Below, piece by piece: positions 1 to 3,244 of a stretch of DNA of 12,203 nucleotides. Source of the stretch: a virus (lineage: Duplodnaviria > Heunggongvirae > Uroviricota > Caudoviricetes); IMG/VR virus record IMGVR_UViG_2693429774_000015. One strand, written 5' to 3'. How positions within the stretch are numbered: position 1 is the stretch's first letter; every line of letters begins with the position of its first letter. The position numbers and the translations under genes are program-made. The notes below the pieces were generated by a model that made no database searches, was not told the origin of the DNA, and saw nothing but the letters and a program-made list of their open reading frames with translations.

Positions 1-366
1 GAGACTGTTTACTCAACAGAAAATGGCGCAGCTGTTACAGTGGATTATATCGGTGCCATCAAAGACGGTTATGTCACGCTTTCACCGTTAACGCCATACG
101 ATAAATGGGATGGTGAGAAATGGGTGACGGATACCGAGGCACAGCATAGCGCCGCACTAGACGCGGCAGAAGTAAAGCGCCAGTCGCTGATTGATGCTGC
201 AATGGCTTCCATCAGTCTGATTCAGCTGAAATTACGGGCCGGGCGGAAGCTGACGCAGGCAGAAACCACCCGACTTAACGCTGTGCTGGATTACATTGAC
301 GCGGTGGAGGCAACAGATACCAGCACCGCGCCTGATGTCATCTGGCCTGAACTGCCGGAGGCGTAG
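1..366 (+). CDS. Tail fibre assembly protein, C-terminal part (5' end lies upstream of window)
   Basis: Frame 1 is open from base 1 ([25 protein letters not shown]...), stop at 364-366. Near-identical to the C-terminal 122 aa of the full-length minus-strand copy at 1551-2144; C-terminal [11 protein letters not shown] motif typical of phage Tfa proteins. Confidence 0.8.
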
Positions 367-391
367 GCCATTCAATATCGGGTGCTGTTGA
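1..391. repeat. Inverted repeat arm 1 (pairs with 1526-1916)
   Basis: Manual alignment of 1-391 to the reverse complement of 1526-1916: identical apart from about 9 substitutions. Confidence 0.85.
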
Positions 392-766
392 AGTATCAAC
401 ACGCATCAGCAGCACACGGTATTTCTTCCATTCGGTGAGAGTTGAAGTTTCTTCATCAGTTGCGATATCAGCATCAACAGCATCCTGACGCCAGGATATT
501 TCACTGTCAGCTTTTTCCCGTAATTGGGATTTTTTAACTTCAGCAATAGCGATTAATTCCTTTTTGGTCGGCTGAGGAATATCTATCAGTGCTGGTTTTC
601 CATTCTGTGTTCCAATCTGTTTTCTTGGTGGAATATCCATAAATAACTTTTTATGTTCTTCTTCACTGACTATTACACCATCATCAGGCCACAGACCTGA
701 TGCCTCAAATTTTTCTTTCTCCGATATGGGGAAAAAGCCATTTGCTTTAGCGCTCCATACGTACAT
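338..766 (-). CDS. Tail fibre assembly protein, second distinct paralogue (tfa'), convergent with and overlapping the 3' end of the plus-strand tfa
   Basis: 142-aa ORF ending ...[21 protein letters not shown], the conserved Tfa C-terminal motif; start codon 1 nt downstream of the stop of the cassette at 768-1103 (coupled pair). Confidence 0.75.
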
Positions 767-767
767 A

Positions 768-1103
768 TCAATACCCCACCGCTATAATGTCCACATTAAA
801 TCCCCCGGGACCTGCCTGCCAGATGCTGGCCCCTGTTAATGATTTTGTTTGATGAACAACCGCCACATTTGCTGGAGATTGTGTTTCAGTTGTTGCAGTA
901 CCGATATCATTCCAGTTAATTGAGATTGAATAGTTCGTTGTTGTAAACGACCGGGGGAAAGTTATGTGTCTTGCATTGGTGCCAATAGGAAATCCAAGAT
1001 AAACACGCTGAATTATCATTCCTCCAGGTAACATAACCCAGTTAGCACCTTCTCCAAAACCAACGTTTAAGAAAATGCAGCGATTACGACTAACTGGCAT
1101 CAT
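768..1103 (-). CDS. Silent (promoterless) tail-fibre C-terminal variable cassette, Sv'-like; the leading Met codons are fortuitous, and the real N-terminus would come from a constant tail-fibre gene after inversion
   Basis: ORF reads through the crossover site (first 15 codons [15 protein letters not shown] are encoded by the site region), then diverges from the other cassette; its 5' end abuts an invertase gene, as in Mu G / P1 C / e14 P segments. Confidence 0.6.
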
Positions 1104-1524
1104 CCCCGATTTTTATTCAGGGAGATGATCATGCTTATTGGCTATGTACGCGTGTCAACAAATGACCAGAACACCGATTTGCAACGTAATGCACTGAATT
1201 GCGCGGGATGTGAGCGGATTTTTGAGGACAAAATCAGTGGCACCAAGTCCGACAGACCGGGGCTTAAAAAACTGCTCAGGACACTATCGGCAGGAGACAC
1301 GCTGGTTGTCTGGAAGCTGGATAGACTGGGGCGCAGTATGCGGCATCTTGTTACGCTGATAGAAGAGTTACGCCAGCGTGGTGTGAATTTCCGGAGCCTG
1401 ACTGACAGTATTGATACCAGTACTCCAATGGGCCGTTTCTTTTTTCATGTCATGGGTGCCCTGGCTGAAATGGAACGCGAACTGATAGTTGAACGTACCA
1501 GGGCGGGGCTTGCTGCAGCTCGCG
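1047..1524 (+). repeat. Direct repeat copy A (crossover site plus invertase 5' region), about 478 bp, 1 mismatch to copy B
   Basis: Manual alignment at an offset of 1547 bp to 2594-3071; single mismatch at 1056/2603; identity ends abruptly after 1524. Confidence 0.9.
1050..1075. other. hix/gix/cix-like 26-bp recombination crossover site (site A)
   Basis: TTCTCCAAAACCAACGTTTAAGAAAA; imperfect dyad with AAAACC / GTTT half-sites, roughly 21/26 matches to my remembered hixL TTCTTGAAAACCAAGGTTTTTGATAA; sits about 50 bp upstream of the invertase start at the point where homology between the two cassette flanks ends. Confidence 0.6.
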
Positions 1525-1685
1525 ATCAACAGCACCCGATATTGAATGGCCTACGCCTCCGGCAGTTCAGGCCAGATGACATCCGGCGCGGTGCTGGTAT
1601 CTGTTGCCGTCACCGCGTCAATGTAATCCAGCACGGCGTTAAGTCGGGTTGTTTCTGCCTGAGTCAGTTTCCGTCCGGCCTGTAA
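1125..1685 (+). pseudogene. Truncated serine DNA invertase copy: first 133 codons identical to the intact invertase, then read-through into the antisense of tfa; no C-terminal HTH DNA-binding domain
   Basis: 1125-1524 is identical to 2672-3071 (MIMLIGYVRVSTNDQ...RTRAGLAAAR); after 1524 the ORF continues through the reverse complement of the tfa 3' flank and coding region, giving an unrelated 53-aa tail. Confidence 0.7.
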
Positions 1686-1916
1686 TTTCAGCTGAATCAG
1701 ACTGATGGAAGCCATTGCAGCATCAATCAGCGACTGGCGCTTTACTTCTGCCGCGTCTAGTGCGGCGCTATGCTGTGCCTCGGTATCCGTCACCCATTTC
1801 TCACCATCCCATTTATCGTATGGCGTTAACGGTGAAAGCGTGACATAACCGTCTTTGATGGCACCGATATAATCCACTGTAACAGCTGCGCCATTTTCTG
1901 TTGAGTAAACAGTCTC
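1526..1916. repeat. Inverted repeat arm 2 (pairs with 1-391)
   Basis: Reverse complement matches 1-391; the window edge truncates arm 1, so the true repeat may be longer. Confidence 0.85.
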
Positions 1917-2144
1917 ATTGCGATGGTCTTCTTCATGGCTCCATCCCTTACCCGTAAATACTGCCACTCTTCCCGGAATGTATTCGCCCGGGTCAATACC
2001 AGTGGAACAGGCGGGCATACTTACGCCAGTATTAATATATTCATCAGACCAGCCAGTATATTCATACGTAACTGCCTCATAATAAAAACAACGCATATTA
2101 CCCGGTACTGTAGCCAGCCCATTTTCATCAAAAACAGGTTTCAT
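1551..2144 (-). CDS. Tail fibre assembly protein (full length, 197 aa)
   Basis: Complete ORF, C-terminal ...[16 protein letters not shown]; start ATG overlaps the stop of the upstream cassette by 1 nt (TAATG-type coupling). Confidence 0.85.
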   Translation of the reverse strand: MKPVFDENGLATVPGNMRCFYYEAVTYEYTGWSDEYINTGVSMPACSTGIDPGEYIPGRVAVFTGKGWSHEEDHRNETVYSTENGAAVTVDYIGAIKDGYVTLSPLTPYDKWDGEKWVTDTEAQHSAALDAAEVKRQSLIDAAMASISLIQLKLQAGRKLTQAETTRLNAVLDYIDAVTATDTSTAPDVIWPELPEA

Positions 2145-2650
2145 TATGCAGCCCTCACAATATAATTAAAGGCGATGTTACGTGGACGGTTTTCATTAGC
2201 TGTTGGCACGACACGAGAGGCGTCGAATCCAAGGTCATCGGTTTTGCCTATAGCAGTTGTGTTATTCGCCATTGTCGCTGATCGTGTTCCTGCATCGTAA
2301 AAAGCCCCTCTGATTGCATCAAAAGACATGCCGATCCCGCCATCTGCGAATCCCTCAATATTTCTTATTGCATCCCCCTGTGAAGATAATAATTGTCGCC
2401 CGGCATCCACTCCACGTCCGTCATCCCAGCCACGAATAAATTCACCGCGTAAATCAGGCAATTTATTTGTCGGGTAAGCCTTTGCCAGCTCCGGGTATTC
2501 TTCAGCCGAAAAAGCAGCCCCGTTGCATTTCAGCCAGCCTGTCGGCGGCGTAGCTGAAGGCCAAGGAACTGGTACGCCAACAGGCAACGCAGAACCTTCT
2601 CCCAAACCAACGTTTAAGAAAATGCAGCGATTACGACTAACTGGCATCAT
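2144..2650 (-). CDS. Silent (promoterless) tail-fibre C-terminal variable cassette, Sv''-like; true N-terminus would come from a constant tail-fibre gene after inversion
   Basis: 168-aa ORF, ...PWPSATPPTGWLKCNGAAFSAEEYPELAKAYPTNKLPDLRGEFIRGWDDGRGVDAGR..., resembling the C-terminal receptor-binding part of Mu S / P2 H-type fibres (from memory); shares only the first 15 site-encoded codons with the cassette at 768-1103. Confidence 0.65.
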   Translation of the reverse strand: MMPVSRNRCIFLNVGLGEGSALPVGVPVPWPSATPPTGWLKCNGAAFSAEEYPELAKAYPTNKLPDLRGEFIRGWDDGRGVDAGRQLLSSQGDAIRNIEGFADGGIGMSFDAIRGAFYDAGTRSATMANNTTAIGKTDDLGFDASRVVPTANENRPRNIAFNYIVRAA

Positions 2651-3071
2651 CCCCGATTTTTATTCAGGGAGATGATCATGCTTATTGGCTATGTACGCGT
2701 GTCAACAAATGACCAGAACACCGATTTGCAACGTAATGCACTGAATTGCGCGGGATGTGAGCGGATTTTTGAGGACAAAATCAGTGGCACCAAGTCCGAC
2801 AGACCGGGGCTTAAAAAACTGCTCAGGACACTATCGGCAGGAGACACGCTGGTTGTCTGGAAGCTGGATAGACTGGGGCGCAGTATGCGGCATCTTGTTA
2901 CGCTGATAGAAGAGTTACGCCAGCGTGGTGTGAATTTCCGGAGCCTGACTGACAGTATTGATACCAGTACTCCAATGGGCCGTTTCTTTTTTCATGTCAT
3001 GGGTGCCCTGGCTGAAATGGAACGCGAACTGATAGTTGAACGTACCAGGGCGGGGCTTGCTGCAGCTCGCG
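2594..3071 (+). repeat. Direct repeat copy B (crossover site plus invertase 5' region)
   Basis: See copy A at 1047-1524. Confidence 0.9.
2597..2622. other. hix/gix/cix-like 26-bp recombination crossover site (site B), same orientation as site A
   Basis: TTCTCCCAAACCAACGTTTAAGAAAA, one nucleotide different from site A in the left half-site; immediately upstream of the intact invertase gene. Confidence 0.6.
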
Positions 3072-3244
3072 CCAAAGGCAGAGTAGGTGGGCGCCGTCCT
3101 AAGTTGACCACCGAACAGTGGGCACAGATTGGACGCTTACTCGAGGCCGGAGAATCAAGACAGTGTATTGCACTGATTTTTGATGTAGGCGTTTCTACCA
3201 TTTATAGAAAATTTCCGGCAAATAAGAGCAATGAATCTCCCTGA
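2672..3244 (+). CDS. Site-specific DNA invertase, Gin/Pin/Cin/Hin-family serine recombinase (intact; real start may be the second ATG at 2678)
   Basis: MLIGYVRVSTNDQNTDLQRNALNCAGCE...SLTDSIDTSTPMGRFFFHVMGALAEMERELIVERTRAGLAAARAKGRVGGRRPKLT... closely matches remembered Gin/Pin sequences, including the catalytic Ser in YVRVSTNDQ and a C-terminal HTH region; GGGAGA Shine-Dalgarno upstream. Confidence 0.9.
   Translation: MIMLIGYVRVSTNDQNTDLQRNALNCAGCERIFEDKISGTKSDRPGLKKLLRTLSAGDTLVVWKLDRLGRSMRHLVTLIEELRQRGVNFRSLTDSIDTSTPMGRFFFHVMGALAEMERELIVERTRAGLAAARAKGRVGGRRPKLTTEQWAQIGRLLEAGESRQCIALIFDVGVSTIYRKFPANKSNESP

Follow-up and report, generated by a model that had tools for sequence, protein, structure and literature searches.

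A probably ordinary two-state tail-fibre inversion switch in an Escherichia coli P2-like prophage, with an extra block that is probably a false join in the draft assembly

The window analysed here is a 12,203-nucleotide stretch of a P2-like prophage that has inserted next to ssrA in E. coli. The locus at its left end is probably an ordinary two-cassette, two-site tail-fibre inversion switch, and the extra block that makes it appear larger is probably a false join in a draft assembly. Such tail-fibre flip switches are common and well understood. The features of the locus are as follows.

1..366, plus strand: tfaA (allele a1), 3' two-thirds, cut by the contig end (Caudo_TAP, E 5e-27)
338..766, minus strand: tfaB, tail-fibre assembly gene and chaperone of cassette B (Caudo_TAP, E 2e-34; phrog_188)
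768..1063, minus strand: silent fibre C-terminal cassette B (Gp53-like_C)
1050..1075, plus strand: 26-bp pix-type crossover site of the Din family, TTCTCCAAAACC AA CGTTTAAGAAAA (0 expected by chance)
1076..1524, plus strand: second copy of the spacer and of the first 400 nt of the invertase gene (1125-1524, codons 1-133), 100% identical to 2623-3071
1525, no strand: scaffold joint, 'A' in the window and 'N' in the public record
1526..2144, minus strand: last 25 nt of tfaB, then complete tfaA (1551-2144, allele a2; Caudo_TAP)
2144..2610, minus strand: silent fibre C-terminal cassette A, Collar type (Collar, E 1e-15; phrog_523, E 2e-79)
2597..2622, plus strand: 26-bp pix-type crossover site (hixR), TTCTCCCAAACC AA CGTTTAAGAAAA (0 expected by chance)
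2672..3244, plus strand: complete serine DNA invertase of the Gin/Pin type (Resolvase, E 2e-53; HTH_7, E 4e-15)
3387..4559, plus strand: P2 FI-type tail sheath gene, adjoining the switch on the right (identical relatives have sheath Pfam families)

The gene order, judged from open reading frames and Pfam families in the window and its identical relatives, is that of P2-like phages: H, G(tfa), a cargo slot, FI sheath, FII tube, E/E', T, U, D and ogr. The invertase gene follows the fibre genes and precedes the sheath gene (annotated 'phage tail sheath protein' in relative L001), in the slot to which the sequence-only reading had assigned it. The tmRNA gene and smpB are at the right end of the window.

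The two silent tail-fibre C-terminal cassettes that had been called from the letters, each with its own assembly gene, are real. Cassette B carries Gp53-like_C, cassette A matches Collar and phrog_523 (tail collar fibre), and a Caudo_TAP gene adjoins each; the Pfam and phrog matches uphold their homology to tail-fibre C-termini. These are the only two cassette types in the window, and no third C-terminal cassette of a different type was found there. The cassette B frame was called as 768-1103, and its invertible portion stops at the crossover centre. The cassette A frame was called as 2144-2650 on the minus strand. In L003, the cassette B sequence forms the expressed end of gene H, terminating in ...IIAVGY and a stop. 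Over 470 nt, cassette A and the gene H end that L001 expresses are 99.8% identical, so the sequences represent two fibre ends, not three. The plus-strand tfa copy reported as running in from upstream is the Caudo_TAP frame at 1-366. The first 400 nt of the window are 100% identical to tfaA of L001, and in all the relatives seen this upstream tfaA is the partner of cassette A.

The 26-bp sites at 1050-1075 and 2597-2622 were correctly located and share one orientation. They differ by two bases and one base, respectively, from the published e14 pixR site (TTCTCCCAAACC AA CGTTTATGAAAA), and both fit the dix consensus (PMC3241671 Table 3). A site identical to 2597-2622 is found in L002-L007. Site 1050-1075 consists of the inner half-site of cassette B and the outer half-site that adjoins the invertase gene; its crossover centre is at 1062-1063, and the alignment of the window to L003 in the opposite orientation terminates at 1064-1066. 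In L001 and L003, which are in opposite states, the inner half-sites move with their cassettes (TTCTCCCAAACC with A and TTCTCCAAAACC with B), which places the strand exchange at the central dinucleotide. The 15 codons with which both cassette frames begin had been read as encoded by the site and as a signature of in-frame joining to the fibre. The two frames do begin alike; the site itself does not supply the shared codons, which are part of a direct repeat (1047-1524 = 2594-3071). Of these 15 codons, about 13 fall beyond the invertible segment and never become part of a fibre, and the argument from them fails in detail. The cassette portion of each frame starts at the inner half-site, from G-(F/L)-G-E-G onward.

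The invertase carries the motif GYVRVSTNDQ (serine motif YVRVST..Q), and its start codon is likely the ATG at 2678. It matches Gin of phage Mu (PDB 3UJ3; E 2.5e-92, 74% identity) and is 86% identical to a protein annotated as pinE. The exact protein is present in 87 blocks of the public collection. The proposal of a tail-fibre switch of the Gin/Cin/Pin kind, working by site-specific inversion, is supported. From the biology of Gin and Hin, a Fis-dependent recombinational enhancer would be expected within the 5' portion of the invertase gene. More than one invertase gene had been proposed; only one is present (2672-3244). The other frame, 1125-1685, contains just the first 400 nt of the gene, with the Resolvase domain and without the HTH, and past this fragment it continues into antisense tfa sequence. 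The stretch 1076-1524 is best read as an assembly extension, not as a second gene.

The closest complete relative is CP115173.1 (L003), which has an identical invertase, the same ssrA site and a single copy of every part. Positions 1-1066 of the window correspond to an L003 segment in reverse with 2 mismatches, and positions 1526-3400 correspond to an L003 segment in forward orientation with 9 mismatches. The remaining 8.8 kb differ from L003 at 4 bases. L001 shares both cassettes, A and B, and is in the opposite flip state, so that gene H ends in cassette A in L001 and in cassette B in L003, with a common constant part through ...LLAYL. Near-identical prophages occur in either orientation (L001 versus L003 and L009). 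The region upstream of the window had been predicted to contain the constant fibre gene and a site of opposite orientation. Since the window starts one base inside the contig end, the source has no sequence there, and the relatives make the prediction likely: in L001-L007 the inverted partner site, TTCTCGCATACC TT GGTTT(G/T)GGAGAA, is located in gene H, and the distance from it to the right-hand site is 1,755 bp in both L001 and L003. The single-copy relatives have two crossover sites and exactly two cassettes.

In a sequence comparison, the window matches bases 2-12204 of the draft record CYDV01000033.1 (L008) with a single difference. Base 1525 is 'A' in the window and 'N' in the public record, and this N is the only one in the 13,245 bases of that record. 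It falls between the end of the direct repeat (1524) and the onset of an inverted repeat (1526), at the point where the invertase fragment, which lacks the DNA-binding domain, abuts the second block. Because the base is an N, the contiguity of 1-1524 with 1526 onward is without sequence support. Three sites had been proposed; the two in the window are linked only across the N, and no contiguous, sequence-supported locus with three or more sites was found in this record or its single-copy relatives. With the N replaced by a base in the scanned window, the sole warning clue was concealed from the sequence-only reading. A search of 5,426 complete E. coli genomes, PLSDB plasmids and INPHARED phages did not find the junction around 1525, and neither did one of GTDB species representatives, IMG/VR and JGI metagenomes in which the ambiguous base could be any letter. 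Against a false join, an N could also arise at 1525 if a contig had broken at the boundary of a true repeat.

By analogy with the biochemistry of Gin, Hin and Pin, the one serine invertase (2672-3244) would pair the site adjoining its own gene with the one in gene H, which lies past the end of the contig. Strand exchange at the central AA/TT dinucleotide would flip a segment of about 1.76 kb, and the constant N-terminal part of H would be joined in frame (...LLAYL to G-F/L-GEG...) either to cassette A, of Collar type with chaperone tfaA, or to cassette B, gp53-like with tfaB. Both flip states were probably present in the sequenced culture and its reads. The draft assembly would have retained one fragment per state, 1-1524 with cassette B and 1526 onward with cassette A, each beside the invertase sequence. 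A scaffolder would then have set the two fragments in tandem over an unclosed gap and left an N at 1525. The apparent second invertase gene, third site and 1547-bp duplication would all follow from this false join. The junctions of cassette B with site and invertase and of cassette A with site and invertase are both present in the single record CYDV01000033.1. In P2-like and e14 switches, both orientations coexist in clonal cultures (PMC4272514; PMC12529663). Greedy scaffolding with gap filling can create false joins, and gap closure requires the overlap of two extensions (PMC5320598; PMC3446322).

The same artefact signature is present in two independent drafts of S. Typhi, L016 (N at 2915) and L025 (N at 3204). 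In each, a crossover site is followed by about 375 nt of the invertase 5' end, a single N and an inverted copy of the segment, and the inverted copies are 99.9-100% identical to their own segments. The truncated 'recombinase' cluster P0028, of which the L025 gene is the representative, has 119 member sequences. Two further drafts, L010 and L011, break exactly at this site.

The direct repeat 1047-1524 = 2594-3071 takes in the crossover site, the spacer after it and the 5' end of the invertase gene, and is perfect from 1057; in the invertase 5' part, the two blocks are identical at 468 of 468 positions. The segment from 1526 onward is the equivalent of 1-391 in reversed orientation, and this inverted repeat (1-391 / 1526-1916) has 9 mismatches, every one of them inside 236-333. 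The 3' ends of the two tfaA copies therefore differ (alleles a1 and a2). One segment in two orientations should yield identical copies, as it does in Typhi, so these 9 bases count against a join of flip states, and a second source of the a2 allele is needed. Both alleles are natural. Allele a1 is present in L001 and L003. The exact a2 protein is found in 48 blocks of the collection, other fibre modules included; L017, a fibre module with a2, is 99.5% identical to 1526-2615, and the a2-bearing blocks include prophages with a Mu-type baseplate near dusA, with 99.5% identity to that stretch.

This patch would be accounted for by a false join of two fibre-switch modules from two prophages of the source genome, a possible but rather unlikely origin of the block. 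In that case, 1-1524 (a1) and 1526 onward (a2) would derive from different modules, or would be chimeric via their common stretches, and each module would remain an ordinary two-state switch. The natural occurrence of both alleles and the N at the joint are consistent with it. Part of the region is matched by 2,935 of the 5,426 complete E. coli genomes, with a median of 2 and a maximum of 14 matching places per genome, which also speaks for two modules. Against it, the invertase 5' parts of the two blocks are perfectly identical, and the invertase genes of the Mu-type modules are just 79-85% identical at the DNA level. Block 1 is also 99.8% identical to a segment of L003, the nearest relative of the ssrA prophage.

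If a real 1547-bp tandem duplication had arisen while the segment was flipped, and a single inversion had come after it, exactly the observed geometry would result; such a duplication is judged improbable. The duplicated unit would comprise the tfaB end, tfaA, cassette A, the site and nt 1-400 of the invertase gene. The result would be a genuine three-site locus (the gene H site and two directly oriented sites) in which cassettes A1, B and A2 are accompanied by a truncated pseudogene of the invertase; inversion could occur between the H site and 1050 or between the H site and 2597, and the two 478-bp direct repeats would destabilise the extra block. The tfaA copies differ as diverged paralogues would, and the N is at the boundary of the repeat, just where a de Bruijn assembler would break. 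Nevertheless, the N lies exactly at the novel joint, the joint is absent from every collection searched and the two Typhi drafts bear an identical signature. A perfect invertase repeat together with a 9-base patch in tfaA is odd for one recent event. Even if real, the duplication would merely place cassette A twice and leave two specificities.

The false join of two flip states would leave a switch that closely resembles the P segment and PinE of e14 in E. coli K-12. Both have a small serine invertase of the Din family (Gin of Mu, Cin of P1, Hin of Salmonella), 26-bp sites with a central AA that here are 1-2 bases from pixR, two convergent cassette-plus-chaperone pairs and an invertase gene directly beside the right-hand site. 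The e14 segment is 1,797 bp (PMC12529663), compared with about 1.76 kb here. Unlike the prophage at ssrA, e14 is a lambdoid remnant; the cassettes here are Collar and gp53-like, and the apparent extra block has no e14 counterpart. Invertase-carrying P2-like phages and prophages of Escherichia, Klebsiella and Salmonella share the order H, tfa, tfa', cassette', invertase, sheath. Examples are Escherichia phage 500465-1, pro483, P2 from O157:H43 T22, Klebsiella phage KP12 and Fels-2 (Fin), none of which has an invertase fragment and a second block; at a single place, 72% of 1-3400 is covered at best.

The sequence-only reading had proposed a Min-like multiple inversion, with one fibre gene, three sites and at least three different receptor-binding C-termini. 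This is very improbable, although the window does show two silent cassettes of different families, each with a chaperone and a site, and three-site P2-like switches exist. In the P2-like prophage of EPEC E2348/69, three repeats give four variants and three alternative C-termini, as confirmed by PCR (Goldberg 2014, PMC4272514). That prophage resembles the present one in switching fibre C-termini by an invertase, and it matches the proposal. Its three sites, however, are in one read-supported sequence with nested inversions of about 2.2 and 1.8 kb (PMC4272514), whereas the second site in the window is linked through the N and comes with a duplicated invertase fragment and a cassette that is already present. 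The upstream tfa partners cassette A in every relative seen, so the expressed end would be A; cassette A has been noted above as near-identical to the expressed end of relatives, which leaves no third receptor-binding end. Min of p15B shares the recombinase family and a similar site consensus, and its mix sites are tabulated alongside pix, gix, cix and hix (PMC3241671). A single segment of Min contains six sites and many cassettes, compared with two cassette types here and two sites in the single-copy relatives.

The Gin/Pin-type host-range switch is textbook biology present in thousands of enterobacterial genomes, and the locus is of little biological import in itself. Genuine three-site P2-like versions were described and confirmed by PCR in 2014 (PMC4272514). 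If the duplication were true, a two-state switch would have become a three-site locus with a spare cassette A free to diverge, a snapshot of the birth of a Min-like or EPEC-like shufflon from a simple Gin/Pin switch. Drafts from cultures with a flipping segment can hold both isomers stitched together. Such stitched isomers lead to duplicated cassettes and extra sites that do not exist, and put truncated or fused 'recombinase' genes into protein databases, of which the Typhi cluster P0028 is an example.

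The window corresponds to the right arm of a P2-like prophage that adjoins ssrA and smpB; at the chromosomal end, it shares 99.7% identity with E. coli. The features of the arm are:

1-2650, fibre assembly genes and cassettes
1050-1075, crossover site, TTCTCCAAAACC AA CGTTTAAGAAAA
2597-2622, crossover site, TTCTCCCAAACC AA CGTTTAAGAAAA
2672-3244, invertase gene, with Resolvase and HTH_7 domains
3387-4559, sheath gene FI
right of FI, in this order, tube gene FII, E/E', tape measure gene T, U, D and ogr
10538-11020, minus strand, 160-aa ORF between ogr and ssrA
11144-11506, minus strand, tmRNA, with smpB also at the right end

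The 160-aa ORF has a strong match to phrog_2561 (E = 1e-76), which is labelled 'DNA ligase', and a weak BRCT match (E = 0.0012) that falls under the Pfam cut-off. In some E. coli genomes it is annotated as 'BRCT domain-containing protein'. The ORF has the appearance of cargo located at the end of the prophage.

The individual parts of the fibre switch described in the sequence-only reading are present. The switch occupies the cargo slot between the fibre and sheath genes, as it does in many invertase-carrying P2-like phages. The minus-strand ORFs 768-1103 and 2144-2650 are both fibre C-termini. The first (cassette B) matches Gp53-like_C; for the second (cassette A), the matches are to the Collar domain and to phrog_523 (E = 2e-79). 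CYDV01000033.1, the public record from which the window derives, annotates a shorter, 167-residue gene for cassette A. Each of the two silent cassettes is followed by a Caudo_TAP assembly gene (tfaB and tfaA, respectively), and a partial third tfa gene enters from the left edge on the plus strand (1-366). Both 26-bp sites are confirmed and share one orientation; none is expected by chance. Both fit the Din-family consensus, and the published e14 pixR site is two bases off the site at 1050-1075 and one base off the site at 2597-2622 (PMC3241671 Table 3). The invertase shares 74% identity with Mu Gin (PDB 3UJ3; E = 2.5e-92) and 86% with a protein annotated as pinE. The switch belongs to the Din family of inversion switches, resembles them in how it works, and is closest to the e14 P segment with PinE.

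The region is made of two large repeats, which the sequence-only reading overlooked. In the direct repeat, 1047-1524 equals 2594-3071, a stretch that takes in the crossover site, the spacer and the invertase gene as far as nt 400. The single mismatch is at 1056, within the inner half-site, and the sequence thereafter is identical (468/468). The inverted repeat consists of 1-391 and 1526-1916, and its 9 mismatches all lie within 236-333. The supposed second invertase gene (1125-1685) contains only codons 1-133 of the complete gene, without a DNA-binding domain, because the direct repeat copies just the first 400 nt of that gene. Past these codons, the ORF continues into antisense tfa sequence. 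The 15 codons shared by the two cassettes had been read as encoded by the site itself. Instead, they belong to the direct repeat, and since the crossover centre lies at 1062-1063, only the final one or two are inside the invertible segment. A separate 17-nt inverted repeat (16/17 matching) links the invertase gene (1461-1477 and 3008-3024, codons for ALAEME) to cassette A (2521-2537, codons for WLKCN). No rearrangement is seen at this repeat, which may be due to chance.

Base 1525 alone separates the direct repeat, which ends at 1524, from the inverted repeat, which starts at 1526. The three-site architecture depends wholly on the junction at this base. CYDV01000033.1 is a 35.7-kb draft contig (assembly GCA_001284905.2) with the gene layout of the window, offset by one base. 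The window spans bases 2-12204 of this contig, so the source contains no upstream sequence. The only difference between the two is base 1525 (1526 in the record), which is 'A' in the window and 'N' in the record. This is the sole N within the 13.2 kb of the record examined. Because the N falls exactly at the novel junction, the junction is an unclosed scaffold gap rather than read-supported sequence. The record's own product for the chimeric ORF 1125-1685 has an X at the N codon. Given this X and the shorter gene annotated for cassette A, the fact that exact look-ups of these two ORFs gave no match carries no information. Placing 'A' at this position creates a GATC and makes the ORF appear continuous, which masks the gap. 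A cloning artefact suggested by the GATC was rejected, as the motif is present only because 'A' replaces the N. A quasi crossover site used by the invertase at the junction was also rejected: judged by eye, the two parental sequences bear no resemblance to the dix consensus there.

Relatives with a single copy of the locus show where each block belongs. In the complete genome CP115173.1, an invertase identical to that of the window lies at the same ssrA position, and the locus reads H (the expressed fibre gene; constant part plus cassette B), tfaB, inverted tfaA, inverted cassette A, site and invertase. Window positions 1526-3400 are colinear with this locus with 9 mismatches, all within the patch of tfaA differences. 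Positions 1-1066 align to it in the opposite direction, with 2 mismatches, up to the crossover centre, where the match halts. In the remaining 8.8 kb, 4 bases differ. E. coli LR-21-1 contains both cassettes in the opposite flip state. There, gene H terminates in a cassette A with 99.8% identity to the silent cassette A of the window, and the tfaA that follows is 100% identical to window 1-400. These comparisons assign block 1-1524 to one flip state and the block from 1526 onward to the other, each as a fragment. Among the sites of the relatives, the inner half-sites move with the cassettes and the outer half-sites stay fixed; the fibre junctions join ...LLAYL to GLGEGS... in cassette A and to GFGEGA... 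in cassette B. The alignments indicate that the plain locus has two cassette types and that 1,755 bp separate its two sites.

An assembly artefact is the best explanation for the unusual architecture. A gap that is filled but remains unclosed would appear in the sequence as a single N, and CYDV01000033.1 was presumably produced by such a gap-filling pipeline. Clonal cultures contain both orientations of the P2-like and e14 switches (PMC4272514), and in one study 30% inversion was reported for e14 in the wild type (PMC12529663). GapFiller closes a gap only when both extensions overlap (PMC3446322), and false joins can arise from greedy scaffolding and from gap filling (PMC5320598).

The two tfaA alleles of the window (1-366, plus strand; 1551-2144, minus strand) differ at 9 bases confined to a 98-nt patch (236-333 versus 1584-1681), resulting in 2 amino-acid changes. 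The first is a natural allele carried by LR-21-1 and CP115173.1. The exact protein of the second occurs in 48 blocks of the collection, including prophages with Mu-type baseplates near dusA, and a chimeric consensus was therefore rejected as its origin. The patch would be explained if the source genome carried a further fibre module that was either assembled chimerically with the first or contributed one of the two blocks, which agrees with both alleles being natural. A real duplication followed by gene conversion is improbable, and even a real duplication would contain cassette A twice and provide only two specificities.

The junction was not found elsewhere. No place spanning it is present in 5,426 complete E. 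coli genomes, the PLSDB plasmids or the INPHARED phages. Exact-pattern scans of the GTDB species representatives, IMG/VR and JGI metagenomes did not recover it, either with 'A' or with a free base, and a protein search of the protein collection returned no full-length, full-coverage homologue of the invertase-fragment fusion ORF. At a matching place in the complete E. coli genome NZ_CP116405.1 (about 3,707,310-3,710,212), there are two 'recombinase family protein' genes and an IS3 transposase; this region might be a genuine rearranged fibre switch.

The pattern attributed here to assembly recurs in other drafts. The protein search returned many truncated invertases from Salmonella Typhi drafts, two loci of which were inspected (CEZF01000040.1, L016 2460-2916; CGRS01000039.1, L025 2749-3205). 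Both contain a pix-type site, approximately 375 nt of the invertase 5' end and a single N, after which the same invertible segment is repeated in inverted form at 99.9-100% identity. The Typhi duplicates are identical, whereas the tfaA copies of the window differ at 9 clustered bases. The two Typhi fragments stop at the same base (...ACCAGGGC). The invertase sequence extends 461 nt beyond the crossover centre in the window and 441 nt in L016. Two metagenome contigs with the same invertase match the window only from the crossover site onward: L011 starts exactly there (position 1), and L010 matches from position 127, its 126 nt upstream having no match. This would be expected from inversion heterogeneity or from different cassettes beside a conserved invertase.

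Several truncated or fused invertases break at codons 126-134, which had suggested a recombination hot spot. This was rejected because the Typhi breaks carry an N and P0005 is an unrelated, real deletion in a degraded prophage that begins in the invertase gene and reaches the tail genes. In a degraded P2-like prophage (L014 6001-6510; three unscaffolded Logan contigs), the invertase gene is truncated at approximately codon 130, and little of the tape-measure gene and none of the sheath, tube and E genes remain, which looks like a real deletion.

The truncated 'recombinase' cluster represented by the L025 gene (P0028) has 119 members; truncated and fused 'site-specific recombinase' proteins from such joins are now in public databases. 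The proposed likeness to Min-type multiple-inversion systems is not supported: the window locus lacks their defining features. A multiple-inversion system is already published for a P2-like prophage of EPEC E2348/69, where three repeats give four isomers and there are three C-termini (PMC4272514). The real feature of the window is an ordinary, already known switch. Its tfaA and cassette A module (1526-2615) is 99.5% identical to positions 4530-5619 of L017, a prophage whose baseplate is of the Mu type and whose integrase lies beside dusA. Judging from this identity, the whole invertible fibre module appears to move between unrelated tail types.
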